Part shown: positions 2,431 through 51,262 of the stretch, piece after piece
Position numbering within the stretch: position 1 is the first letter of the stretch
Layout of the letters: each line of letters starts with the position of its first letter
Virus record (IMG/VR): IMGVR_UViG_3300036833_000473
Span: 1-61,383 of that record
From: a virus
Lineage: Duplodnaviria > Caudoviricetes
Length of the DNA stretch: 61,383 nucleotides
Strand: one strand, 5' to 3'
Notes under the pieces: model-generated
Database searches by the model: none
Seen by the model: the letters and a program-made list of their open reading frames with translations, nothing else
Told to the model about the DNA's origin: nothing
Made by a program: the position numbers and the translations under genes

Positions 2431-2442
2431 AAATGTTTGAAT

Positions 2443-2472
2443 ATTATGGCATTTTTATCACTGATAATTCAA
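2443..2472 (-). promoter_or_regulatory. Sigma70-like promoter with palindromic operator
   Basis: Minus strand TTGAAT-18-CATAAT; palindrome TTATCA-c-TGATAA at 2455-2467. Confidence 0.55.
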
Positions 2473-2522
2473 GGTTAGCAGAGAGTGCGGGAGATGGGTG
2501 GCGCGAGGGATATCATAGGGCC

Positions 2523-4049
2523 ATGGCCACAGCCCCGGCTCAGCTCGAGTACTTCGTCAAGAACTTCGACTTCCTGCCGCCGCACGTGCAGGCGGCGGTG
2601 CGCGAGCGCCTGGAGGGCGCAATCATCGGCGACCGGCCGGAAGAGGCGCGTAACAGCTTCCTGCCCTTCGTGCGCCGCGTCTGGCCGGGCTTTATCCACG
2701 GCCGGCACCACGACGTCATGGCGGACGCCTTCGAGCGCATTGAGAGAGGGGAGCTCAAGCGCTGCATCATCAACATGCCGCCGCGCTCGACCAAGAGCAA
2801 GCTGACCAGCGTCATGTTCCCCGCCTGGTACCTGGGGAAACATCCAGAGAAGAAAATATTCGAGGGCAGCCACACGGCATCGCTCGCCATGGACTTCGGC
2901 CGGGATCTGCGCAACCTGGTGCTGACGCCGGAATACCAGAAGGTCTTCCCGGGGCTGCGCCTGGCGCAGGACTCTCGCGCCGCGCACCGCTGGAGCACGC
3001 ACGTGGGCGGCGAGTACTTTGCCGTCGGCAAGACCGGCGGCGCCGCCGGCCGCGGCGGGGACCTGGTGATTCTCGACGACCCGCACAGCGAGCAGGATGT
3101 CCTGAAGAACGCCAAAGCCGAGTTCGAAAAGACCTGGAAGTGGTACCTGGCTGGTCCACGGCAGCGCCTGCAGCCCGGCGCGGCAATTCTGGTGGTCATG
3201 ACCCGCTGGGGCGAGATGGACCTCACCGGCCAGCTGATCAAGCAATACCTGGAAGACGAAAAAGAAGTCGAGCGCTGGGAAGTGATCGAGCTGCCGGCCA
3301 TCCTGCCATCCGGCGACGCGCTGTTCCCGGAATTCTGGAAGATCGAGGAATTGCGCGCCACGCGAGCCATCCTGCCGGTGGCACGCTGGCAGGCCAACTA
3401 CCAGCAGGCGCCGACCAGCGAGGAAGGCGCCATCATCAAGCGCGACTGGTGGCAGAACTGGGGCGAGCCCCTGCCACCCTTGTGCGAGTACCTGGTGATG
3501 AGCTGGGACACGGCCTTCTCTACTGGCGACAGCGCCTGCCGCAGCGCCTGCATCGTATGGGGCGTATTCCGGCAGAAAACCCACGAGGACCCGCCGCGCG
3601 TCAAGACCGGCATCATTCTGCTCGATGCCTGGGCGGCGCGCGTCAACTTCCCCGAGCTCAAAAAGAAAGTCAAAGAGCTCCACGCCCAGTGGAAGCCGGA
3701 CTCGCTCGTGATCGAGAAGAAGGCCTCCGGCGGACCCTTGATCCAGGAGCTCTTCCACGCCGGCCTCTATGCCCAGGAGATGAACCCCTCTCGCTCCCAG
3801 GACAAGGTGGCGCGCACCAACGCGGTGGCCGACCTGTTTGCGAGCGGCATGATCTGGGCCCCGCTCGGCCAGCGGTGGGTGGAGCAGGTACGGGAAGAGA
3901 TGGCGGCGTTCCCGCATGGCGAGTACGACGACCTGCATGATGCCGGGGTGTGGGGCCTGTTGCGGCTGCGGATGGGAAATTTAATTCACCTGGGAAGCGA
4001 TGAGGAGGATGAGGAATGGCAGCCGCGGCCGGCGCGGAAATTCTATTGA
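2523..4049 (+). CDS. terL: Terminase large subunit
   Basis: MPPRSTKS Walker A, LVILDDP Walker B, VMTRW motif, SWDTA / IEKKASG / YDDLHD nuclease motifs; start set at ATG 2523. Confidence 0.95.
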   Translation: MATAPAQLEYFVKNFDFLPPHVQAAVRERLEGAIIGDRPEEARNSFLPFVRRVWPGFIHGRHHDVMADAFERIERGELKRCIINMPPRSTKSKLTSVMFPAWYLGKHPEKKIFEGSHTASLAMDFGRDLRNLVLTPEYQKVFPGLRLAQDSRAAHRWSTHVGGEYFAVGKTGGAAGRGGDLVILDDPHSEQDVLKNAKAEFEKTWKWYLAGPRQRLQPGAAILVVMTRWGEMDLTGQLIKQYLEDEKEVERWEVIELPAILPSGDALFPEFWKIEELRATRAILPVARWQANYQQAPTSEEGAIIKRDWWQNWGEPLPPLCEYLVMSWDTAFSTGDSACRSACIVWGVFRQKTHEDPPRVKTGIILLDAWAARVNFPELKKKVKELHAQWKPDSLVIEKKASGGPLIQELFHAGLYAQEMNPSRSQDKVARTNAVADLFASGMIWAPLGQRWVEQVREEMAAFPHGEYDDLHDAGVWGLLRLRMGNLIHLGSDEEDEEWQPRPARKFY

Positions 4050-4066
4050 AACCTGACCTACGACTT

Positions 4067-4747
4067 CTCTCAGCTACCAGGCCGCCGAGCGGGCATTCCA
4101 GTGTTAAGGCCGGGTCTCAGTTACCGGGCCGCCGGGCAGGCACTGTGACCCAACAGAACAGGGGCGCCAATGGCGGTCTCAGCTTACCACGCCGCTGAGC
4201 AGGCATTACGGCACGAGGCGATTATCATCGGTTTCGTCCCAGCTACCACGCCGCTAGGCAGGCACTGCAGAACAAATGCCGAAACGGTCTCGAGCAACCA
4301 GGCCGCCGGGCTGGCACTGCGATTTTACACCATCTCCCAGCTACCACGCCGCTGAGCAGGCACTGCGACGATCACGCGCAATGAGCGCATAATCACGCAT
4401 CCACTGAGTCCCAGCTACCAAACCGCTGAGCGGGCATTGCGACTCGGACAAGAGAATCGATGCTGTCTCGTCTCAGTTACTAAGCCACCGAGCAGGCAAC
4501 TTCCAAGCCTCCGTTATCCGGGTCTCAGTTTCCAAGCCACCAAGCAGGCATTGCAACCCCGCAAGCGCGGTGCGGCGCGGATCCGGTACGTCATCTCGGT
4601 TACCAAGCCACCGAGCAGGCATTGCAACACGGCGTAACTATCTCAGCCACCAAGCCACTGAGCAGGCGCTGCAACCTCCCGTGAAAGATTGTAAGACGTC
4701 CCTGAAAGGCTGTCTCAGCTATCACGCCGCTGAGCAGGCACTGCAAC
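4067..4747 (-). CRISPR. CRISPR array, 12 degenerate 36-37-bp repeats and 11 spacers (10-38 nt)
   Basis: Repeats start at 4067, 4114, 4176, 4236, 4287, 4334, 4408, 4470, 4522, 4593, 4640, 4712; minus-strand consensus GTTGCAGTGCCTGCTCAGCGGCTTGGTAGCTGAGAC with 3' hairpin; 10 bp from the effector stop codon. Confidence 0.92.
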
Positions 4748-4757
4748 AGTCCCTATT

Positions 4758-6503
4758 CTATACTGTTGATCCCATGCCCTCCTCTCCCTCGCTTGGCGAG
4801 CGGTCCCCGGAACCCGGCAAAATCTCCGGACTATCTGACTGATTCTTCGTCGGTGCCGCCTTGCCGCTCGCCAGCAGATTGATGGCCGCATTATGGTCCT
4901 GATCCCAAAGCTCACCGCACTGACCGCAGCGGTGCAGCACGCTGGCCGCCTGGTCCCAGACCTCGGCGTGCCCGCAGGCGTGGCAGGTGGAAGTGCTGTA
5001 GGCCGCCGGCACGATGCGGACTTCAACTCCCTCGCGCTTACAGGCGTTCACTACCGCGCCGCGGAAGACCGAGGGACTGAGCATCTGGCGGTAGCTGCCA
5101 ATGGTTTTATTCTTTTCATCTTCCTTGGGCTCGGCCACCTGGCGCAGGTCGAACTTCTCGAGGATGACGGTGGCGTATCTAGCCGCCAATTGAGCGGCAA
5201 AGATGCGGTACTGCTCGCGCACGCGCAGGGTCATCTGGTCCTGCTGGTTGCGCCACCAGTTGGTGAGGTGCAAGTATTGCCTGCGCCAGCTGGTGGCGCT
5301 CGCAAATATCTGTGCGTCCTCGTCCAGGCGATGGTCGCCCCACCAGCGGATCAGGCTGGCCAGGCGGTCGCCGCTGCGCCATTGCGCCAGTGTCAGAGTG
5401 CGGCGTTGCCACTCGCTATCGAGCGACTGCCCGCCCAGCCACTTCACCAGCTCGGGCTGAAACTGGTCGCGCGCGCAGTCGGTAATGGAGCGCAGGTCGT
5501 TGACCTTTTTGAATTGCGCGATGTCGCTAGCAGGAACCAGCACCTCGCTATGGCTGCCCGCGTCATCCTGCCAGTAGGCCACACGGCCGCCGGCAGGCAG
5601 GAGGCGCCAGCCGATGTCGATGGCTACGGCAGCGCCGGGGTTCTTGACGGGAACCGGCGGCAGAGCCACGCTCACGTTCAACGCCCATTGCACCTTGCCG
5701 GCCAGCAGGCGCCGCGTGGCGCTGACGCTCTTGATGCGCGCCAGAGGCGGGATGTCGCGATGGTAGACGATGGGCAGGCTTACCCAGAGGGGCGTGCGGC
5801 TCTTCTCGCCGGAGCCGATACGCACGCGCGCGTAGCGCCACTTTTGTCCCGGGGTGGCACTGTCGATCTGGAAGAAGGTGTGCGGCCCCTCCACGCAGGC
5901 TTCCACGCTCGCGCCGTCAATGATCTGCGCCGTAAGCGTGCCCTCGCCGCGGAAAGAGCGGTACTTGAGCTCGCCCAGCTTGCGGCCGGTGTCGGCCGAC
6001 TGGATGACGGCGTTATAAGTCCCCCAGAACAGGCCCAGGCCCTTGGGGCCGGCCGCCCGCCGCGCGCGCTTAACGCGCCGGTTGCGCAGAGCGTTGAGCG
6101 CGTCCAACTGCTCCTGGCGCGCGGCGTGGCGCGCCTTCTGGGTGGCCTTCTGGTGCTCGAGCAGCATGCCGAGAGCGGAGCGTACCCGCGCCAGCTCGTC
6201 GTCGAGGTCGGGAGTCGCGACCTTGGTGCGGGCCTTCTGGCTCCGCGTCTTCTTCTCTTTCCAGAGCGCCTCCTTGCGTTCGCGCAGCTTCTCGATCTCC
6301 ACCTGCGCCTCGTCGCTCATGACGCGCCGGTAACCCGCGGTATGGTAGCGCTCGACGGTGACCAGCACGTTCCACAGGCGGCGCGCCAGGCGCATCTGCA
6401 CCAGCGCCTGGTCTTCGTTTAAGACGGGCGCGATGCGCGCGGGAACCGTGCCGTACTGGTAAACCATGGAACGCGTTTTCTGAGAGTCCTTCTGGTGTTT
6501 CAT
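4758..6503 (-). CDS. cas12m: Type V CRISPR effector, Cas12m (V-M/V-U1)-like, 581 aa
   Basis: LFWGTYNAV, FRGEGTLTAQI, RVRIGS, WVSLPIVYHR, RuvC-I AIDIGWR, RuvC-II ILEK, Zn finger CHAC..CGQC, RuvC-III DQDHNAAINL; adjacent array; RBS GAAAGG. Confidence 0.85.
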   Translation of the reverse strand: MKHQKDSQKTRSMVYQYGTVPARIAPVLNEDQALVQMRLARRLWNVLVTVERYHTAGYRRVMSDEAQVEIEKLRERKEALWKEKKTRSQKARTKVATPDLDDELARVRSALGMLLEHQKATQKARHAARQEQLDALNALRNRRVKRARRAAGPKGLGLFWGTYNAVIQSADTGRKLGELKYRSFRGEGTLTAQIIDGASVEACVEGPHTFFQIDSATPGQKWRYARVRIGSGEKSRTPLWVSLPIVYHRDIPPLARIKSVSATRRLLAGKVQWALNVSVALPPVPVKNPGAAVAIDIGWRLLPAGGRVAYWQDDAGSHSEVLVPASDIAQFKKVNDLRSITDCARDQFQPELVKWLGGQSLDSEWQRRTLTLAQWRSGDRLASLIRWWGDHRLDEDAQIFASATSWRRQYLHLTNWWRNQQDQMTLRVREQYRIFAAQLAARYATVILEKFDLRQVAEPKEDEKNKTIGSYRQMLSPSVFRGAVVNACKREGVEVRIVPAAYSTSTCHACGHAEVWDQAASVLHRCGQCGELWDQDHNAAINLLASGKAAPTKNQSDSPEILPGSGDRSPSEGEEGMGSTV

Positions 6504-6703
6504 ATAGCTAACCTTTCTTTCTTTTTCCCTTCGAGCATATGATGCTCGAGTCCGCCGAACTCGCCGGCCCAGTCGAGCAGGTTGGCGAGCCTCTGGCCGA
6601 CGAACTTGCGCGCGAGCGGCGCGGCCTTGACGATGACTCCATCGCGCGTAACCACCTCGATGGTGAACACGCGGCAGCTGATCCAATGCGTCAGTTCTTT
6701 CAC
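6500..6703 (-). CDS. Small phage hypothetical protein
   Basis: 4-bp overlaps with both neighbours. Confidence 0.7.
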   Translation of the reverse strand: MKELTHWISCRVFTIEVVTRDGVIVKAAPLARKFVGQRLANLLDWAGEFGGLEHHMLEGKKKERLAI

Positions 6704-8701: not shown

Positions 8702-8935
8702 TCATGCCCACGGCCGCCTCCAGTCGGGATGAAACCGCTGCCGGTACGGCTCGCGCACGGTGCGGTTGTAATCGGCCACCGCCTCGTCGTAAGACTCCTG
8801 CGCCGCCTGGTAGGCCTCACCATGATAGTCGCCGCCGGTGTCGCTCCAGATCCACTCCATCTCCAGACGCAGGGCCTCCACCCGCCCGAATGCCAGGAGA
8901 ATGGGATCGCGCCTCATCCAGGGTTCGATCTGCAT
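8702..8935 (-). CDS. Hypothetical protein
   Basis: RBS GAGG; operon position. Confidence 0.55.
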   Translation of the reverse strand: MQIEPWMRRDPILLAFGRVEALRLEMEWIWSDTGGDYHGEAYQAAQESYDEAVADYNRTVREPYRQRFHPDWRRPWA

Positions 8936-8954
8936 TCTTATAGCACCTCAGTCA

Positions 8955-9152
8955 TCAGATCGCAGACCCGCTTATGTTCCCGCTCGCGCTGGATTTTCTC
9001 CCCAACTTTTCATGATCCCTTAGGGCAGTGTTAATCGCGTGAATCAAGAATGCCTGCTGACTTATGTCCAGGTGAAAGCAAATCGTGCGCAGGCGATCAC
9101 GCATGTCTTTATCCATGCGAATCGTCGTCTCGTATCTTTTCCCTGAGCTCAG
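8955..9152 (-). CDS. Arc/RHH-like DNA-binding protein (start uncertain)
   Basis: TTIRMDKDMRDRLRTICFHLDISQQAFLIHAI. Confidence 0.5.
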   Translation of the reverse strand: MSSGKRYETTIRMDKDMRDRLRTICFHLDISQQAFLIHAINTALRDHEKLGRKSSASGNISGSAI

Positions 9153-10075
9153 ACCTTTACCTCGTAGTCGCGCGGCGGCACCTCCCCGCGCGCCTTCGTC
9201 CCGCGCGTGGTCATCGGGGTCCACACCAATTGATGGTACTTCCCGAATAAGCCCGCGCCCTGCCGGTAGTCGCGGAAATGCCCGCGGCAGATATGAAGCG
9301 CCTTCGCCAGGCCCACCTCGCCACTGCGACCTTCGCGGCGCAGAATCTGCTTCAACGGCTCGATCACCAGCGTCTTGTATTTCACCGGCCAGTGGCCGGT
9401 GCGCTCGTGGTACTTCTTGGCAAGCGGCAGAGGCATGCGCTCGTCCTGCTGCACCACGTTGTGGCAGTGCAAAAACGAGATGGCGAGCAAGGACGGGTGC
9501 AGCCACGTCATGAGCGCTTTCATCAGCCCTTCCTCTTGCGGAGTCGCCCAGCTGTGCATGGAAGGCGCGCCGAGCAGTGCGCCGGCCTCATCGATCGCCG
9601 TGGCGATGGTGCCGTGCGGCCCCTGAATGGCCGCGCCATGTTGGCCGTAGTCCACGAACAGCTCGGCGACCATCACCCAGTGCGCGCCCGCTGGAATGTC
9701 CTCGCCGACCGCGTCTTTCGCAAGACCGGCCAGGAACAGCACGCCTATGCGGCCCCTGGAGATGCCCAGGTGGCTGATGTCGCTGTCGCCGCACTGCTTG
9801 CTGTGGATGCGCGTGGCGAGCTTGTGCTCCATCCAGAACGCTGCGAACGGCGGCGCGATGTTGGGGAAGTCCTTATTGAAGCTCCAGACCTCCTGGTCAC
9901 TAGTCTCATAGTAAAAGCGGGCCACGTTGTCGATCAAGATCACCGGCAGCGGCTCACGCAAGAGCTCGATGGTGCGCCGTGCGTGAGCGCCCCAGTCGCT
10001 CTCGCGGTAGGCAGCCACGAAGCGGGGCATCTCAAGCTTGGGAGCGACGCGTAAGTCGTCGATCAGGCGGGGCAT
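9149..10075 (-). CDS. Hypothetical protein with C-terminal HxxRGH..W.P motif
   Basis: LHICRGHFRDY...LVWTP, resembling the tail of the adjacent AcrVA2-like gene. Confidence 0.75.
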   Translation of the reverse strand: MPRLIDDLRVAPKLEMPRFVAAYRESDWGAHARRTIELLREPLPVILIDNVARFYYETSDQEVWSFNKDFPNIAPPFAAFWMEHKLATRIHSKQCGDSDISHLGISRGRIGVLFLAGLAKDAVGEDIPAGAHWVMVAELFVDYGQHGAAIQGPHGTIATAIDEAGALLGAPSMHSWATPQEEGLMKALMTWLHPSLLAISFLHCHNVVQQDERMPLPLAKKYHERTGHWPVKYKTLVIEPLKQILRREGRSGEVGLAKALHICRGHFRDYRQGAGLFGKYHQLVWTPMTTRGTKARGEVPPRDYEVKV

Positions 10076-13806: not shown

Positions 13807-13848
13807 GGTTTTACCTCCTAATGCGTGCCGGGGTTGTGAACCGGCCCT

Positions 13849-13873
13849 CCCGCATTACCCCCGCTAATGCGGG
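13849..13873. terminator. Intergenic hairpin
   Basis: CCCGCATTA / TAATGCGGG inverted repeat, no clear U-tract. Confidence 0.35.
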
Positions 13874-13886
13874 GTCACTCTGCGAT

Positions 13887-21367: not shown

Positions 21368-21933
21368 GTGTCGTTATTCGCTTTCACATAATCAGCGCCC
21401 ACCCGGCGGGTGGGCGGGCGTTTCGGCGGCCGGTGTTCTTTGGTGATCCGCCACCCGTCGATGGGTGCCCCGAACCACATTTCCGCGGTGGCGCGGGCGT
21501 GGCGGGCGTAAGGGGTGGCGAACTTTTTCCGATACTCCTTGGGCTGCCAGATCAGCCACCGTGGACCAGTGCGCCGCAAAATAACCTCGATCGCAGTGGT
21601 ACTTGTGGTCTCCGTGCCTGTGCCGCTCAGCATGGCGGTGACTTCGTCGCACCCATCTAGCGGATCCGGCGGGGGCGGTGTCCAGGCGGGATCGATCAGC
21701 CCCACCGGGAAGGTCGCCATATCGCGGAAGCGTTCCCCGTCCCAGTAGGTAATCGTGGCGTCATCCATCTCCGCGTCGGCCGGGATGTCGGCCAGCTCGA
21801 CCAGTGGGGCGCCGAGCTCCTGGGCAATTTCTTCCCGGCTCTTCCCGGCGAGAGCCATGGGATAGCGGATGGACTCGCGGGCATGTTGTTGAAAACGGCG
21901 TAGCCGTGCCAGGCTGTAGAGGCGTTCGGCCAT
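21364..21933 (-). CDS. Hypothetical protein
   Basis: Operon position; ATGA overlap. Confidence 0.65.
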   Translation of the reverse strand: MAERLYSLARLRRFQQHARESIRYPMALAGKSREEIAQELGAPLVELADIPADAEMDDATITYWDGERFRDMATFPVGLIDPAWTPPPPDPLDGCDEVTAMLSGTGTETTSTTAIEVILRRTGPRWLIWQPKEYRKKFATPYARHARATAEMWFGAPIDGWRITKEHRPPKRPPTRRVGADYVKANNDT

Positions 21934-21954: not shown

Positions 21955-21990
21955 GCCTCAGCTATCAGGCCGCTGAGTAGGCATTACTGG
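21955..21990 (-). repeat. Solitary CRISPR-repeat copy A
   Basis: gcctcagctatcaggccgctgagtaggcattactgg; CTCAGC/GCTGAG stem as in the array. Confidence 0.85.
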
Positions 21991-22035
21991 TCTGAGCAGC
22001 TCGAGTGCTTCCCGGGCATTATGCACCACGCCCGT

Positions 22036-22071
22036 GCCTCAGCTATCAGGCCGCTGAGTAGGCATTATCGG
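22036..22071 (-). repeat. Solitary CRISPR-repeat copy B (81 bp from A)
   Basis: gcctcagctatcaggccgctgagtaggcattatcgg; overlaps the VRR-NUC stop codon. Confidence 0.85.
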
Positions 22072-22359
22072 TCGGAGCAGTTCGAGTGCTTCGTGTGCAT
22101 TATGCACTACGCCTGCAATAGCGCCGGCACACCGCCACTCTTTCAGGCGCGCCGTTTGCAGGGGCGTAGGGATGTTTCCGGGCCTCTTGACTTCAAGCTC
22201 AAAATGGCGGCCGGCGACCACTCCGTACAGGTCGGGATCGCCGGCTGTGCCGAGCGCGGTTCCCCAGCGCTTGCGCACCACCAGGCCCGGAATTTGCCTT
22301 AGGGCCTTTACGATCGCGCGCACCAGCGAGCTTTCCCGCGCTGGGGCAGGGCGCGCCAT
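22039..22359 (-). CDS. VRR-NUC domain nuclease
   Basis: ESSL, GDPDL, LEVKRPG..TPLQ. Confidence 0.88.
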   Translation of the reverse strand: MARPAPARESSLVRAIVKALRQIPGLVVRKRWGTALGTAGDPDLYGVVAGRHFELEVKRPGNIPTPLQTARLKEWRCAGAIAGVVHNAHEALELLRPIMPTQRPDS

Positions 22360-23227: not shown

Positions 23228-23263
23228 GTCCCGAGTATCAAGCCCTCGGGCAGGCATTTCAAC
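23228..23263 (-). repeat. Solitary CRISPR-repeat copy C
   Basis: gt-cccgag-tatcaagcc-ctcggg-caggca-tttcaac: same 36-nt layout, covaried stem. Confidence 0.85.
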
Positions 23264-23753
23264 GCCATGTTTTTAACACCTGGACGCGGTATGTGGGTTC
23301 GATGCGCACCACCTTGGCGAGCTCCGGCGGCAGCATCGACAAAGTGTTTTCGATGGAGCCCGCGTTTTCCTCGAGCTGGCGCACATAGGTGGTGAGCGAC
23401 TTGGTGGAGTACACCTCTTTGACGTAATGTGCCAGCCCGCATTCTTTGAGCGCTTCGATCACCTGCTCGTCGGTGGCGTGCGCCGCCGGATAGATCCACG
23501 GCTCGCGGTGTGGCGAAAGCGTGTAGCCTTCGATCTTGATCTTCTGGTACCCGCCCTCTCCGAAGTAGCTCAGCACCTGCGGTTCGAGCAGGCGCAGGCG
23601 GGCTTCGACCGCGCGGGTTTCGGCGGCCAGCTCGCGCTTGCGGATGGTCAGGCGGACCAGGTCGGTGAAGGCCTGGTGCTCGGGAGTTTCCTCTACTAGC
23701 TGATGATCATTGGGGAACAGCATTGCCTTTAACCTCGCTAAGGACACTTTCAA
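23259..23753 (-). CDS. Hypothetical replication-module protein
   Basis: Coiled-coil start; operon position. Confidence 0.7.
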   Translation of the reverse strand: MKVSLARLKAMLFPNDHQLVEETPEHQAFTDLVRLTIRKRELAAETRAVEARLRLLEPQVLSYFGEGGYQKIKIEGYTLSPHREPWIYPAAHATDEQVIEALKECGLAHYVKEVYSTKSLTTYVRQLEENAGSIENTLSMLPPELAKVVRIEPTYRVQVLKTWR

Positions 23754-25116: not shown

Positions 25117-25379
25117 GTCTTGATCCCTGCGCGCTGTGCGGCTATACTCAGCGCCAGTAGCAGTGTGAGGTCTTCGGGGCGGGGTGGCGTAAGCGGGTGA
25201 GAAGTATAATACGTGAGCACTCTGAGTACTTGACCTCCCAGGTCGGGGGCTAAGTACAACTCTATGAGTGCCAGCACTAACGGGTCATGGTAGTAAATCG
25301 CGGATTCGGGTAAGCTTTGTCTCGGCTTCTCGACTGCCGAGCAGGTATCGGTAGAAGATTGTGACTTACACATCGTCAT
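25113..25379 (-). CDS. Hypothetical protein (start uncertain)
   Basis: ATGA overlap with helicase. Confidence 0.45.
   Translation of the reverse strand: MTMCKSQSSTDTCSAVEKPRQSLPESAIYYHDPLVLALIELYLAPDLGGQVLRVLTYYTSHPLTPPRPEDLTLLLALSIAAQRAGIKT
25319..25354 (-). repeat. Solitary CRISPR-repeat copy D
   Basis: gt-ctcggc-ttctcgact-gccgag-caggta. Confidence 0.65.
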
Positions 25380-25449: not shown

Positions 25450-25487
25450 GTCTCGGCTTGCTATGGCCGCCGAGCGGGCATTGAGGT
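25450..25487 (-). repeat. Solitary CRISPR-repeat copy E
   Basis: gt-ctcggc-ttgctatggcc-gccgag-cgggca-ttg. Confidence 0.78.
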
Positions 25488-25520: not shown

Positions 25521-25601
25521 CTTCAAAAATATTGGGTGCGGGAGCGTCTGGCGGAATACACACCGACCAGTTTTTAAACTGCTTGCAAAGGAGTGGTACT
25601 T

Positions 25602-26165
25602 ATGTCCAACAAAGGTTCCAAATCGGGTTCCAAGGCAGCGCCTTCGAAGAAAGTCGCGAAAGTCAAGAGTAATCGCGGGCGCAAATTAGAAAAAGTTCAA
25701 ATCAGTGTGCGGCTGGATAAGCCGTGCATGGATGTTCTTTACCGCCTGGTCAAGACGGAAGGCTATCGCATCACCGATCTTCTCGAGCGCGGCGCCATTT
25801 ACGTGTTGAGAGAAGAGATGGGCGAGTCGCCGGAGATGAAGGCCTTGCGCTTTATGATCGGCGAGATGCCGGCCAAGTCTCAGCGGAGACTGGTGTGCTG
25901 TTTCACATATTTTTGTTTGACTCAGGATTTTTCTATTACCGAGCGTCACGTTGAGGAGATGATGAACGGGATTCTCGATGCCTGGGAGCACGATCCACGT
26001 CACGAGAGATCGCTGCTGGAGTTCTACGCGCAGATGCGGGACAAGCGTAGCAAGGGTGGGGGCGAAGATGGGGATGGGAATGGGGACGGTGGCGGTTCCT
26101 CTGGTTCGCCTTCGGGAATGGCTTCGCCCAGTACCGTGGTTGCTTCTTCTCCAGGCCAAATGTAA
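25602..26165 (+). CDS. Putative transcriptional regulator (RHH-like)
   Basis: RBS AAAGGAG; KVQISVRLDK...ITDLLERG; divergent from replication operon. Confidence 0.6.
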   Translation: MSNKGSKSGSKAAPSKKVAKVKSNRGRKLEKVQISVRLDKPCMDVLYRLVKTEGYRITDLLERGAIYVLREEMGESPEMKALRFMIGEMPAKSQRRLVCCFTYFCLTQDFSITERHVEEMMNGILDAWEHDPRHERSLLEFYAQMRDKRSKGGGEDGDGNGDGGGSSGSPSGMASPSTVVASSPGQM

Positions 26166-43444: not shown

Positions 43445-45965
43445 ATTGGGGCGGAACTTCGGGCGGCGCCGCGCTGGCGGCATCCTGCGCCATCTGGTTT
43501 TCCTTGAGAATGCGCTCCTCGGCGCCGGCGGCATGATCAAGCAGCGCCTTGTGCCGCTCGGTATTGGTGTCGGCCAAGTGGCGCGCCTGCGCGGCCTGCT
43601 CGCTGATCAGGTGGCGCGTCGATTCGGCCTGCACTTCCATCTGCGTGCGGCGTTCCTCGCTCGCCATCTGCGCGGAGGCGATCTGCCCCTTCTGCTGCGT
43701 GCGCGCACTCTCGAGCTGCAGCTTCGCCTGGTCGGTCTGCGCCTTCTGGTCCGCTGTCTTCTGCTTCAATTGCAGCTCGGCTTGCTGCTGCTGCACCAAG
43801 GGGTCCTGCTGCGCCTGTTGCGCCTGTTGCGCCTGCTGCGCCTGCTGGTTGATCCCGGTGAGCTTCTGTGCCGCGGCGGCGATCACGCTCGACAACTGCT
43901 CTTCCACTTCCGGGGGCAGTTTGGCGCCGAGCGGCGGCAGAGGCACGCCCATCTGCTGCTCGATTTCCCGGCGGTACTGGAAGGCCAGGTGCTCGTTGAG
44001 GTGCGCGTAGGAGGCCGACTGAATCGAGGGCGACAGCGGGTTCTGCGCCATGGCGGCCTTCATCTTGGGGTCGTCGGAATTGATCAGGCCCATGTGGACG
44101 ACGATGTGGCTGGCGTGATCCTGCCACTGGAAGGCCTTGACCGGCTTAGAGGTGAGCAGCGCCATGTTCTCCGCCACCGGGTCCATGGGCTCGACCGCGC
44201 TCTTGTCGGGCACGATCTGGTCGGCGTTGTCGATGCCCAGGACTTCCAGCATGGAGCGGTGCAGCAAGGGTAAGTTATAAAGTTGCGGCGCCTGGTTACT
44301 GAGCTGCAGCGCGGCCTGGTATTCCATCACGCGCTGCGCCATGGTGGAAGCGGCCGGGTCGCTCACCGGGACAATGGAAACCGACTGGTGGTAGTCGTTG
44401 TACTTCGCCGAGCGTGGCACATGGTTGGGCGGATCGTAGTCGTAGTCGCCGCCGGTGTGGTCGCGGATCAGCTCGGCCACGATGGCGAGCTCCCTGCCGA
44501 GCGCGGTGTGCATGCGCGACTGCACCGCGGTGATGACTTCGGTGGCGCGCTCGATCAAGGCCAGCATGGTGCCGACCGGCGCGTTCTGCGTGGATGCGCT
44601 CAGGTCGAGATCGGCGATCGAGGCGAAGCTCTTGCCCTCATCGACCAGCATCTGCAGCAGCTGAAAAAGAACGGCGCTCGGCTCTTTGTACGGCAAAAAC
44701 GCAATCGAGTCCAGGATCTTGCCGGCGGCCACGTCCACGTCGCGGAACTCGCCTGGCTGAATCGGATCGGCGTCTCCTTTAATGCGCAGGGTGCGCGACT
44801 TCAAGCCGCCGGGCAAATTACTCAGCGTGCCGGCGTCCACCAGCTGGCGCAGAATCGACGTCGAGGAGTGGCCGATGCCGCCAATCAGATGGATCAGGCC
44901 AAGGCCGTACGGACCCTTCCAGGGAACGTAGCGGTAGTGCACCCAGTTGAGCGTCTTGGCGTGTTCCAGGTCGCCCTGCCGCCAGTTGCGGTAGATCGAC
45001 AGAATCCGGTTGCTGTCCGATTCGAGCGTGATCACGTAGGGCAGCGGCTCGCCGTTCTCGAGAATCAAATCTGTGGTGACCTCCCACAGAGTGATCAGCT
45101 CGCTGCGGCTGTACGAGGGCGAGACGCCGCTCAGGCGGACCACCTTCTCTTCCAGGCTGTCCATCTCCACGGGCGAGCGGTTGAGCGCAATGTCGCGATA
45201 GAAGCCGATGGCCTGCAGGCGCCGTACATCGCCATAAGACTTCCTCATGACGTGGGTGTAGCGCGGACAGGTTTCTAAATTGGGAAACCCGAACGGCATC
45301 AGAAAATCGTTGGCCGGCACGAACTGTGCCACCGGCCGCTTGAGCAATGGATCGAAGCAGACTTTCTTGAAGGCCGAGCCATCGACGGGCAAGGCGAACA
45401 GCAATTGTTCGCTTTCGTCGCGATATTCCAGCATTTTGTCGGTCAGCCAGTAATTCAGATCTGAAGCTACCCTTTTGGCTTGCTGGATTTTCAGCTCATT
45501 ACTCTCGCCCACCACCTTGGCATTCGCCGGGCCTTCCGGTGGAAACAGGCGCGTGATCGATTTCGATTGAAATCGGACAGCGGCCTCCAAAATCATCGGG
45601 TGCACCACGCCGCAGGCACCGGGCCAGGGCATCTGCCGGTCTTCGTCTTTGATGCCCAATAAATCCATGCCTTTGGTGAGCGCGTCTTCCCAGTCGCGCC
45701 GGCTCGATTTGTCTTCATCCACGGCAAAGCGCAGATCGCTCGCGATGCTGCCGAGCAAATTATCTGGTAAATACTCCGCCAGGTTGGCGCCGAAGGGCGC
45801 CTTCTCAAGAGCGCGTTCCTCGGCGGGGCCGTCCAGCGAAACCTCGACCGAGCCGTCGGGGAGTTCTACACTGGCGCCATTGGGCGGTGGAGTTAAATCG
45901 AGAACCGCGCTGGCCAGGCCATGGTGAGCGCCATTGGGGGGCGAGAGTAAGGGCCGGTCAAACAT
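43443..45965 (-). CDS. Portal protein
   Basis: FGANLAEYL, PWPGACGVVHP, GSAFKK, LRQLVDAGTLSNLPGG, PVGT.LALIE; Q-rich barrel tail. Confidence 0.88.
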   Translation of the reverse strand: MFDRPLLSPPNGAHHGLASAVLDLTPPPNGASVELPDGSVEVSLDGPAEERALEKAPFGANLAEYLPDNLLGSIASDLRFAVDEDKSSRRDWEDALTKGMDLLGIKDEDRQMPWPGACGVVHPMILEAAVRFQSKSITRLFPPEGPANAKVVGESNELKIQQAKRVASDLNYWLTDKMLEYRDESEQLLFALPVDGSAFKKVCFDPLLKRPVAQFVPANDFLMPFGFPNLETCPRYTHVMRKSYGDVRRLQAIGFYRDIALNRSPVEMDSLEEKVVRLSGVSPSYSRSELITLWEVTTDLILENGEPLPYVITLESDSNRILSIYRNWRQGDLEHAKTLNWVHYRYVPWKGPYGLGLIHLIGGIGHSSTSILRQLVDAGTLSNLPGGLKSRTLRIKGDADPIQPGEFRDVDVAAGKILDSIAFLPYKEPSAVLFQLLQMLVDEGKSFASIADLDLSASTQNAPVGTMLALIERATEVITAVQSRMHTALGRELAIVAELIRDHTGGDYDYDPPNHVPRSAKYNDYHQSVSIVPVSDPAASTMAQRVMEYQAALQLSNQAPQLYNLPLLHRSMLEVLGIDNADQIVPDKSAVEPMDPVAENMALLTSKPVKAFQWQDHASHIVVHMGLINSDDPKMKAAMAQNPLSPSIQSASYAHLNEHLAFQYRREIEQQMGVPLPPLGAKLPPEVEEQLSSVIAAAAQKLTGINQQAQQAQQAQQAQQDPLVQQQQAELQLKQKTADQKAQTDQAKLQLESARTQQKGQIASAQMASEERRTQMEVQAESTRHLISEQAAQARHLADTNTERHKALLDHAAGAEERILKENQMAQDAASAAPPEVPPQ

Positions 45966-48952: not shown

Positions 48953-50161
48953 TCAGCTGGCGAGTGGCAGGTGGTAGTCCAGGATCCGCGTGGACTGGCT
49001 CATGCGCTCACGATAACCGGGAACGAGGTTCAGATAGTGGTTCGCCGTAATCTTGACGTCGCTATGGCCGAGCATCTTGGAGACGACGAAGAGGTTCTCG
49101 CCGCCGCTTGCCACCAGCATATTGATCGCGAAAGTATCGCGGAAGCGGTGGCAGGCGCCAGGCAGGCCGGCAAGAGCGAGAGCCTTCACCACGAGCGCGG
49201 TCGTTTCGCGGATGGCTGTCAGATATCGGCCCGCTCCCAGTTCTTCGGAAAAATTGCCGCCCGCGTTGAGGACGGCCAGCGCCTTGCGGTAGTCGCCCTC
49301 GGGTTGGAAGAAGAAGGCACCAGATCCCGGCAGCTGCCTCAGGGCTTCGACCGCAGCGAGGTTCAACTCGATGGGCAGGCCGATACGCTTGCGGGTTTTG
49401 ATCACCACGAAATCCAGGATGCGGTCCGCGCTGATCGAGGCGCGCTGCGCGAAGGTCGCATCCGAGATGCGCATGCCGCTATACACCATCAGCAGGATGA
49501 GGGCGCGGGTGCGATCCCGGTCGGCTTCCGGCATAAGCCCGATTGCCTGGATGACTTTCGCCAGGTCGGCGTGGCTGAAGGCCTCCCGTGCGTGCCCGGA
49601 GGGCTTGGAGAACGTCAGGGCCTTTTTGGCGGCTGGCGACTTCACGATCCAGTCCATTTCCTTGGCGTAGTTGAAGAACACGCGCAGATGCGTCAGGCGG
49701 CCGATCTTGGTGCGCTGCTCCCATTCGCGCCCGTACTCGCTGAAGTATTGCTCGAAGAGGTACGGCTCGACGGCGCGCAGTTCGACCACCCCGTGGGCTT
49801 CGGCGAAGCGGCGAAAGTGGCCGACGGCGGTGGTATAGAGTTTGACCGTATTGGGTGCCTTTCCGCTTTTGGCCTTAAGGAATTTGGCTTCGGCTTCGGC
49901 GATGCTCATCACGCCAGTGGTGATAGCTTGCGCCACGCCGCCTCCATCGGGGGAGTGCGGGTTCAGCATCTCGCGGATCTTGAGTTCTGCCATGCCGAGC
50001 GAGCGAGTGCTCAGGCTCTCGCGAATATACTTGCCGGCAATTCGGCCTTGTACCCAGAGTGGGCAATCGCAGGCAAGGTCCTTCGCCGTGCAGGCCGGAG
50101 CGTGGCGCCGGTAAGGGGTCAGGTGGTCGCGCTTTTTGCGTGGGGTTTGGGTGTTGGACAT
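48953..50161 (-). CDS. int: Tyrosine integrase
   Basis: SGMRISD, K, HRFRDT, LGH, HY catalytic motifs. Confidence 0.93.
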   Translation of the reverse strand: MSNTQTPRKKRDHLTPYRRHAPACTAKDLACDCPLWVQGRIAGKYIRESLSTRSLGMAELKIREMLNPHSPDGGGVAQAITTGVMSIAEAEAKFLKAKSGKAPNTVKLYTTAVGHFRRFAEAHGVVELRAVEPYLFEQYFSEYGREWEQRTKIGRLTHLRVFFNYAKEMDWIVKSPAAKKALTFSKPSGHAREAFSHADLAKVIQAIGLMPEADRDRTRALILLMVYSGMRISDATFAQRASISADRILDFVVIKTRKRIGLPIELNLAAVEALRQLPGSGAFFFQPEGDYRKALAVLNAGGNFSEELGAGRYLTAIRETTALVVKALALAGLPGACHRFRDTFAINMLVASGGENLFVVSKMLGHSDVKITANHYLNLVPGYRERMSQSTRILDYHLPLAS

Positions 50162-50373
50162 GAGGTCAGTATAGCCCATTCCCACACATGAAATTCGTAC
50201 GGTATTTTTGAGGTTATTGAAAACAGGAAGGTTAGCGTGTACGAAAATACTAGAAGGTCTTCTTCAAATTGCATTTACAATCTACGATATATCTTTAGTA
50301 TCAATATCTTAGCAGTCACCATAATCACCATTTATCCCATCCATTGTACAACCTTGTACGCCCGGAGGTCCCC
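50162..50373. other. Candidate attP region
   Basis: AT-rich non-coding stretch beside int with four GTAC-core boxes. Confidence 0.45.
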
Positions 50374-50535: not shown

Positions 50536-50571
50536 GTCCCAGCTACTGGGCCGCTAAGCAGGCATCACCAA
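50536..50571 (-). repeat. Solitary CRISPR-repeat copy F
   Basis: gt-cccagc-tactgggcc-gctaag-caggca; stem closes with G.U only on the minus strand. Confidence 0.78.
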
Positions 50572-51196: not shown

Positions 51197-51250
51197 TTGA
51201 GGCTTTTGAGGCTTTTGAGGCTTTTGAGGCTTTTGAGGCTTTTGAGGCTT
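51197..51250 (+). repeat. Perfect 9-bp tandem repeat (TTGAGGCTT)x6
   Basis: Directly visible. Confidence 0.95.
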
Positions 51251-51262
51251 TTCGACGCGTGA

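Follow-up and report, generated by a model that had tools for sequence, protein, structure and literature searches.

CRISPR arrays are usually recognised through their identical repeats, and degenerate ones are read as decay. Positions 4067–4747 of a soil phage raise the question of what an array is whose repeats have all diverged. The phage is IMG/VR virus record IMGVR_UViG_3300036833_000473, and the window that we analysed is the whole record (61,383 bp; temperate, completeness rating 95%, GC 62.7%). Twelve repeats of 36 nt exactly span this segment, between the terminase gene and a gene for Cas12m, the type V-M effector. An initial annotation had called them a fixed, selected guide cassette and not a decaying array. 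Our analysis points to a type V-M (Cas12m) system carried by the phage, with an ageing, non-adaptive array for CRISPR RNAs (crRNAs) in which each unit has been kept functional, a reading to which we assign a probability of about 0.7.

The identity of the effector was established by sequence searches. The protein encoded next to the array matched 23vw_A ('CRISPR-associated DNA-binding protein Cas12m') in the PDB at E 4.4e-83 (query residues 24–548) and Cas12m2 (8hio) at E 2.4e-21, whereas TnpB chains scored only E 3e-6 to 0.02. Pfam detected PF07282 (Cas12f1-like TNB) in it (E 5.6e-13), and the same domain was present in all except three of the 47 relatives, 45–65% identical, that a large protein search returned. 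D296, E449 and D536 are invariant across 39 aligned relatives; the window gene is intact, and its D-E-D triad aligns with that of PmCas12m. An IS200/IS605 TnpB with an omega RNA was considered and rejected, given twelve tandem crRNA-type units and TnpB scores of E 3e-6 to 0.02 against 4e-83 for Cas12m; transposon ends were not sought. PmCas12m binds double-stranded DNA and does not cut it, according to its authors, and binding without cutting is also reported for D-E-D, H-D-D and N-D-D variants (Bigelyte 2024). By analogy with these homologues, the window Cas12m would bind DNA without cleaving it and would process its own pre-crRNA. Of two soil DNA runs examined, one is the probable source, and the other contained fragments 95–97% identical to cas12m, where no contig spans the array. 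The cas12m ATG overlaps, at 6500–6503, the stop codon of a 67-aa upstream open reading frame (ORF; 6500–6703, minus strand), which suggests translational coupling in the leftward operon.

The array lies on the strand of cas12m, the minus strand. We found no convincing separate promoter between cas12m and R1, the first repeat, and the cas12m stop codon directly precedes R1 on the same strand, so that co-transcription of the array with cas12m is the simplest reading and the most likely one. The minus-strand consensus is GTTGCAGTGCCTG-CTCAGC-GGCKTGGTA-GCTGAG-AC, and a covariance model scored the individual array repeats at E 3e-9 to 1e-6. No two repeats are identical, as had been claimed: all 12 are distinct, and pairwise identity among the ten without an indel is 61–89% (mean 74%). 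The array thus lacks the near-identical direct repeats of a canonical CRISPR array. It also lacks canonical regular spacing, since start-to-start periods of 46–74 nt leave spacers of 10–38 nt, a feature that the initial annotation had passed over. When the scaffold was taken as 29 nt, the part ordered in published structures, the segments between successive scaffolds measured 43, 18, 42, 23, 33, 45, 18, 22, 31, 33 and 18 nt; the minimum of 18 nt was reached three times and never undercut. The longest exact run common to two repeats is 22 nt (median 9), which is compatible with the proposal that divergence limits recombinational loss. The initial annotation had also proposed that divergence would hide the array from CRISPR finders; Tandem Repeats Finder (TRF), which is no CRISPR finder, did not list it. 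A Mantel test showed no significant relation between the distance of two repeats and their places in the array (p 0.27–0.35).

Each repeat has the fold of a Cas12m crRNA scaffold. Counted from the repeat 3' end, GCC at −28 to −26 and GGC at −17 to −15 form a 3-bp pseudoknot, and −23 to −18 form a 6-bp stem with −8 to −3. In the PmCas12m crRNA, as its structure report describes it, −28 to −26 pairs with −15 to −17 and −23 to −20 with −3 to −6, and the mature crRNA comprises about 33 nt of repeat and about 17 nt of guide, being cut after repeat base 2–3. For Cas12m2, the corresponding report describes bases −36 to −30 as disordered, a scaffold of pseudoknot plus stem, and a heteroduplex of 17 bp. 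The paired positions of the window repeat equal those of the published PmCas12m and Cas12m2 scaffolds; therefore, what the initial annotation had termed a possible pseudoknot is the known Cas12m pseudoknot. Divergence tracked this structure. It was highest in the 5' tail, the seven bases of the disordered region (26/84 deviations from consensus, 31%), and lowest in the pseudoknot triplets, whose near-invariance had been noted before (0/36 for GCC and 1/36 for GGC, 0–3%); the 5' and 3' stem arms showed 15/72 and 8/72 deviations, respectively. Stem substitutions were mostly compensated. The four stem variants quoted earlier are those of R1, R3, R4 and R9. With G·U pairs allowed, stems were fully paired in 10 of the 12 repeats on the minus strand and in 3 of 12 on the plus strand, which bears out the earlier count and establishes the strand. 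The minimum free energy of the whole array was ordinary (z 0.45), as expected since the hairpins are short and local.

The other type V-M traits agreed with this assignment. Beside a Cas12m-type effector with a RuvC-like fold and a TNB zinc ribbon, and a pseudoknot-plus-stem scaffold, the system has no adaptation module: profiles for Cas1, Cas2 and Cas4 gave 0 matches across the 61-kb record and matched in control genomes. No plus-strand (anti-repeat) copy scored below E 3.7 in the whole phage, consistent with a single crRNA that needs no trans-activating crRNA (tracrRNA), judged by anti-repeat complementarity as the sole test.

Is the pairing better preserved than chance would allow? We built a covariance model from the 12 array repeats and ran it over the whole window. 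It matched 17 copies at E ≤ 6e-4 and a marginal one at E 0.62, all 18 on the minus strand, in agreement with the 18 copies counted before; a further 23 weaker matches (E ≥ 1.2) were spread over both strands. When the observed stem substitutions were placed at random, 5.4 of the 12 array hairpins were expected to stay intact and 10 did (p 0.0024), and over the 18 copies 8.3 were expected and 16 observed; this test treats units as independent, ignoring the shared ancestry of neighbours. Across all 18 copies, 97.5% of cells were paired, and 0 of 500 column shuffles reached the observed pairing or covariation score. The copies held 12 double-change cells (0/500 shuffles) and five pairs with double changes (2/500 shuffles); slid-partner controls gave 9.6–52% paired. 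The 18-copy alignment was fitted to the covariance model and is hence biased toward structure. RNAalifold, one of the checks proposed in the initial annotation, predicted the same stem with compensatory change in 4 of its 6 pairs. The strongest evidence for compensation is carried by the copies outside the array.

These results bear on the possibility that the locus is a neutral relic, that is, a dead ancestral array in decay whose hairpins survive through recency and through transitions buffered by G·U pairing. Random placement of the same changes would break about half of the hairpins, the solo copies carry several double compensatory changes, and the divergence of the 5' tail far exceeds that of the pseudoknot triplets, all of which weighs against a relic. 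The intact cas12m, with all family-invariant residues kept, argues in the same direction, as does a length floor that recurs in other arrays.

We examined this floor in other Cas12m loci. Relatives of Cas12m occurred on 330 metagenome stretches, 80 of which were kept, and 68 loci lay on IMG/VR contigs. Many loci (among them L005, L006, L013, L040 and L020) had canonical arrays of identical repeats with a period of 71–75 nt. In others, several of them on viral contigs (L001, L033, L035, L036, L031, L116, and L082 in its distal part), all or nearly all repeats were distinct and periods were shorter and irregular; L001 equals L022 (a 113-kb phage with terminal repeats), L035 equals L037/L090/L091/L097, and L220/L229 are the same contig as L082. 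The cas12m strand carried 133 of the 134 model matches in five of these irregular loci. In the independent locus L033, whose Cas12m is 32% identical to that of the window, 99.1% of cells were paired and 23 were double-change cells, and 0 of 500 shuffles reached either value. The 162 unit periods pooled from nine other diverged arrays included 6 below 46 nt, 42 at 46–48 nt and 23 at 71–76 nt. A period of 46–48 nt equals a 29–30-nt scaffold plus a 17–18-nt guide, which is the reported heteroduplex length. Random deletion would not halt at 17–18 nt, and we regard this floor as the best indirect evidence for guides that remain important. Recurrence of this type of array at other Cas12m loci is established.

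One of these loci displays the process within a single array. In L082 (a 54-kb viral contig; Cas12m 53% identical), 20 cas-proximal repeats are identical and separated by spacers of 35–38 nt, and the distal repeats have diverged with compensation and have spacers of 12–18 nt. Because of this gradient from identical proximal to diverged distal units, an aged array and a selected cassette can be regarded as two sides of one process. In the same array, one 38-nt spacer is present twice within the identical-repeat part (8906–9088; units starting at 8906 and 9051), and the L020 array has duplicated spacers too.

Several observations nevertheless weigh against kept function, and some of them are what a relic would produce. 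The spacing is irregular, spacers are cut to as little as 10–16 nt, and two repeats, R8 and R11, are damaged by broken pairs or an indel. Three short units have repeat-tail sequence in a portion of their 17-nt guide position (e.g. S2, then GTTGCA), and these may be crippled guides. The earlier claim that substitutions preserve structure beyond chance stood for the 18 copies and under random placement, but a column shuffle of the 12 array repeats alone was not significant, with 94 of 500 shuffles reaching the observed percentage paired; this control is weak because most changes are transitions absorbed by G·U pairing. Adjacent units resemble each other a little more than units do on average (p about 0.04), so that their changes do not count as independent events. 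The models behind the survey of other loci had been trained on this repeat family, for which reason the survey carries no information on prevalence, and it included a contig (L140, described below) where cas12m decays while repeats persist.

No guide target was found in the databases searched. A blastn search of the array against 50,697 cultured-phage and 72,556 plasmid records gave chance-level matches only (all E ≥ 0.7). Exact 20-mers from spacer S1 and from a promoter-driven solo guide had 0 matches in IMG/VR, and the guides had none in 2.3 Mb of collected Cas12m loci. Within the phage, the best self-target had 3 mismatches in 18 nt and no protospacer-adjacent motif (PAM), and exact guide matches anchored at the 5' end were no longer than 12 nt, as also seen with shuffled sequences. 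GC content was 53–54% in the initial 17 nt of the guides and 62.7% in the genome (p 0.014 with 12 guides and 0.001 with 18), a hint that would fit intergenic or promoter targets.

Taken together, we consider the relic unlikely. The claim of a fixed, selected cassette had indirect support only: Cas1, Cas2 and Cas4 are missing, scaffolds are kept while tails drift, the 17–18-nt floor is respected and cas12m is intact. Against it stand the damaged R8 and R11 and guides for which the databases searched held no target. The word 'fixed' accordingly derives from the missing adaptation genes and the signatures of selection rather than from guide conservation seen in relatives.

An ageing but functional array would work as follows. 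A transcript running from cas12m through the array would fold, at each repeat, into the 3-bp pseudoknot and 6-bp stem. By homology, Cas12m would cut this precursor close to every repeat's 5' end, retaining about 17 nt downstream as guide, and would bind PAM-flanked DNA without cutting, so that transcription or replication would be blocked. As the phage has no adaptation genes, the array is not renewed. Its units would then age, each repeat gathering its own substitutions while spacers and the dispensable 5' tail are shortened, and selection would retain the scaffold of each unit with at least 17–18 nt after it. The likely use would be against rival mobile elements, or against host genes during phage residency.

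Five further units (E 3e-6 to 6e-4) and the marginal one lie outside the array (Table 1); tens of kb separate them from cas12m, whose strand, the minus strand, they all share; the L082 phage likewise has single units far from its array. The unit at 25450–25487 directly follows a sigma-70-like site (TTGACA-17 nt-AAGAAT, 25520–25492, 10 of 12 matches in a promoter scan) and begins where this site would start transcription, within the leader, itself non-coding, that heads the leftward operon. The marginal unit (25319–25354) has an intact stem, one pseudoknot pair changed on both sides (A-U) and another pseudoknot pair broken. The unit at 23228–23263 holds the stop codon of ORF 23259–23753, and a terminator-like hairpin (23227–23212) comes next. 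An 81-nt tandem duplication (21955–22113, minus strand; TRF 2.0 copies, 89% matches) has doubled a unit along with the final ~15 codons of an endonuclease gene: the unit at 22036–22071 supplies the last ~9 codons of this gene and its stop, and the one at 21955–21990 ends 21 nt upstream of an ATG at 21933, so that its guide position holds the ribosome-binding region of that gene. We had considered the endonuclease ORF as VRR-NUC-like, which had no Pfam support; PHROGs assigns it as an endonuclease.

Table 1. Positions of the array repeats, the solo repeat units and the genes discussed (coordinates of the window; E values of units are from the covariance model).
Feature	Position	Strand	Description
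Terminase large subunit	2433–4049	+	Pfam Terminase_6C, E 1.3e-7; convergent with the array; context, outside the system
Repeats R1–R4	4712–4747, 4640–4675, 4593–4628, 4522–4557	−	Plus-strand coordinates
Repeats R5–R8	4470–4505, 4408–4443, 4334–4369, 4287–4323	−	Plus-strand coordinates
Repeats R9–R12	4236–4271, 4176–4212, 4114–4149, 4067–4102	−	Plus-strand coordinates
cas12m, type V-M effector, 581 aa	4758–6503	−	Stop codon 10 nt upstream of repeat R1
Solo unit	21955–21990	−	E 1.5e-4; second copy of the 81-nt duplication
Solo unit	22036–22071	−	E 2.7e-4; first copy of the 81-nt tandem duplication
Endonuclease ORF, 106 aa	22039–22359	−	PHROG 93, E 8.6e-16, residues 7–99
Solo unit	23228–23263	−	E 3.9e-6; stem CCCGAG/CUCGGG, four pairs changed on both sides
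Marginal solo unit	25319–25354	−	E 0.62; ~95 nt beyond unit 25450–25487
Solo unit	25450–25487	−	E 6e-4; stem CUCGGC/GCCGAG, loop 2 nt longer
Integrase gene	48953–50185	−	Solo unit 50536–50571 lies ~350 nt upstream
Solo unit	50536–50571	−	E 3.4e-6; between convergent small ORFs, ~350 nt upstream of the integrase gene

The segment 25100–25600 comprises ~480 nt of lower-GC non-coding DNA between a leftward helicase gene and the rightward ORF 25593–26165 (no Pfam match). It contains the promoter-like site, two repeat units and the palindrome CCGGCTTAAGCCGG, and it looks like a phage divergent control region.

The solo units could have a role in place of guiding or beside it. If they were, at least mainly, sites at which Cas12m binds and cleaves messenger RNA to tune neighbouring genes, their places at gene boundaries and their orientation with local transcription would be accounted for, as would the two units with stop codons of upstream ORFs, the one just before a start codon and the one after a promoter-like site heading the leftward replication operon; standalone CRISPR-like repeats with regulatory roles are reported in other CRISPR types. 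Such sites would leave the 12-unit array beside cas12m unexplained, however, and the case for them is entirely one of inference. Compared with the phage promoters, solo guides gave a longest 5'-anchored match of 12 nt, within the shuffled range. We regard this account as improbable for the system as a whole.

The repeats could also be RNA decoys (RNA anti-CRISPRs, or solitary repeat units) that mimic a host Cas12m system and sequester or misdirect the host effector instead of serving that of the phage. In favour of decoys, the solo units lie outside the cas locus, and what follows several of them, for example a terminator hairpin or a ribosome-binding site, would make a poor guide. On the other hand, decoys of this kind are defined by the lack of an effector, and this phage encodes an intact Cas12m of its own, directly upstream of the array on the same strand; an array architecture with a guide floor of at least 17 nt also suits a guide cassette rather than a decoy. 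We therefore find decoys the least credible of the explanations considered.

A stronger form of the functional reading, which we put forward tentatively and think rather doubtful, is that in some phage-borne Cas12m systems a former adaptive memory has become a hard-wired multi-guide repression programme: minimal crRNA genes, each made of a 29–30-nt scaffold and a 17–18-nt guide and under its own purifying selection, with solo units seeded genome-wide. Repeat divergence may then have been favoured because it removes the homology by which units are deleted. Under this programme, phage sequence flanking the solo units, at gene ends and at the promoter-like site, would be turned into guides. Such self-derived guides would be harmless at home because the repeat occupies the PAM position, and through the same sequence they could target and silence a superinfecting related phage without the insertion.

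The kind of array is known. Type V-M (formerly V-U1) systems include MmCas12m/Cas12m2, GoCas12m and PmCas12m (PDB 8hhl, 8hio and 23vw); the subtype is reported to be plasmid-enriched and to occur in some prophages (PMC11656645). Carriage of type V-M by phages or prophages is already in print. The window system shares with them a homologous effector (E 4e-83 to 23vw_A), a 36-nt repeat with the same pseudoknot and stem positions, the lack of an anti-repeat and of adaptation genes, and an array downstream of the effector on the same strand. It differs in its 12 distinct repeats, 10–38-nt spacers and extra single units across the phage genome, whereas repeats are identical, at a period of ~72 nt, in the systems characterised so far and in many relatives.

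TldR proteins, some of them encoded by prophages, are RNA-guided repressors that resemble TnpB, are nuclease-dead and use a fixed guide. They resemble the window system in function only, as a hard-wired guide paired with a non-cutting DNA-binding protein of the TnpB/Cas12 lineage on a mobile element. TldR uses one long omega-type RNA instead of an array of crRNA units, and the window protein scores as Cas12m, not as TnpB.

A close published case is the Cas12m locus of myxophage MV-1 (bioRxiv 10.64898/2026.09.14.751636), which, according to its report, also combines a phage Cas12m with an adjacent array, has neither adaptation genes nor tracrRNA, and has no protospacers found. It differs in being described with a single consensus repeat and eight spacers, and with a 610-aa protein with D305, E463 and D555; the window protein has 581 aa with D296, E449 and D536, so the two are different phages. 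The report's claim of a first phage Cas12m stands beside the 68 Cas12m-like loci that we found on IMG/VR contigs. The standalone cr-like repeats of Shmakov et al. (2023; bioRxiv 10.1101/2023.03.03.530964) are likewise single repeat-like units outside arrays. According to that study, they make cr-like RNAs, viral mini-arrays are implicated in inter-virus competition, and the elements, described mainly for types I and V-A, are located within cas loci or else in viruses without the effector. The solo units here, in contrast, are of Cas12m type, lie tens of kb from their own cas12m and overlap gene ends. Diverged or compacted Cas12m arrays were not described in the literature that our full-text searches covered, which is no proof of absence; nor were scaffold-keeping arrays with all repeats diverged, a minimal unit of ~47 nt or phage-wide seeding of single units found there.

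Within the phage, the replication genes form a long leftward block with cas12m at its end. Rfam matched the type-P5 twister ribozyme within the leftward gene block (13828–13884, minus strand; 57.2 bits where the gathering score is 37.6, E 2.9e-9). Two perfect 9-nt tandem repeats were also seen, TTGAGGCTT (6.2 copies, 51197–51252, ~1 kb from the integrase gene) and CCTGCTGCG (4.8 copies, 43805–43847, inside the portal gene). A DNA search with 2433–6700 against phage records gave no match, and no close relative sharing the array was found. The repeats are absent from two phages related by terminase, L149 (whole record checked) and L150. In L149, whose terminase is 78% and portal 71% identical to those of this phage, no cas12m was found in the 11.6 kb examined; its lack there of both cas12m and the repeats indicates that cas12m and the array form an accessory cassette.

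Further comparisons among the other loci gave few additional units. An all-against-all comparison of Cas12m loci returned only identical duplicates or pairs with canonical arrays, and an IMG/VR scan for the repeat-core pattern gave mostly chance single matches; among the 80 loci listed, real units occurred only in L220/L229 and L205. On the contig with the decaying effector (L140, 36 kb, IMG/VR), only cas12m fragments were present at 5603–6109 and 9956–10034 (residues ~62–102 and 204–256; 56–65% identical), together with four repeats at a ~72-nt period and two more units on opposite strands; in this instance, the effector has decayed ahead of its repeats. Two 36-kb IMG/VR phages, L084 and L100 (97.8% identical), differ by a shift of ~150 nt downstream of cas12m, which suggests that about two units were gained or lost in an array there missed by the repeat model.

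In this phage, each unit retains the parts required by the Cas12m structures and sheds the dispensable ones, despite pairwise repeat identities of 61–89%. If the units are active, mobile elements can keep fixed sets of guides over the long term without an adaptation module, and detection based on repeat identity may miss such arrays. Active units would also provide natural, non-identical and equivalent Cas12m repeats and a ~47-nt unit for multiplexed CRISPR interference, avoiding problems of recombination and synthesis. The scattered single units, if active, would wire the production of guides into the phage's own transcription programme.

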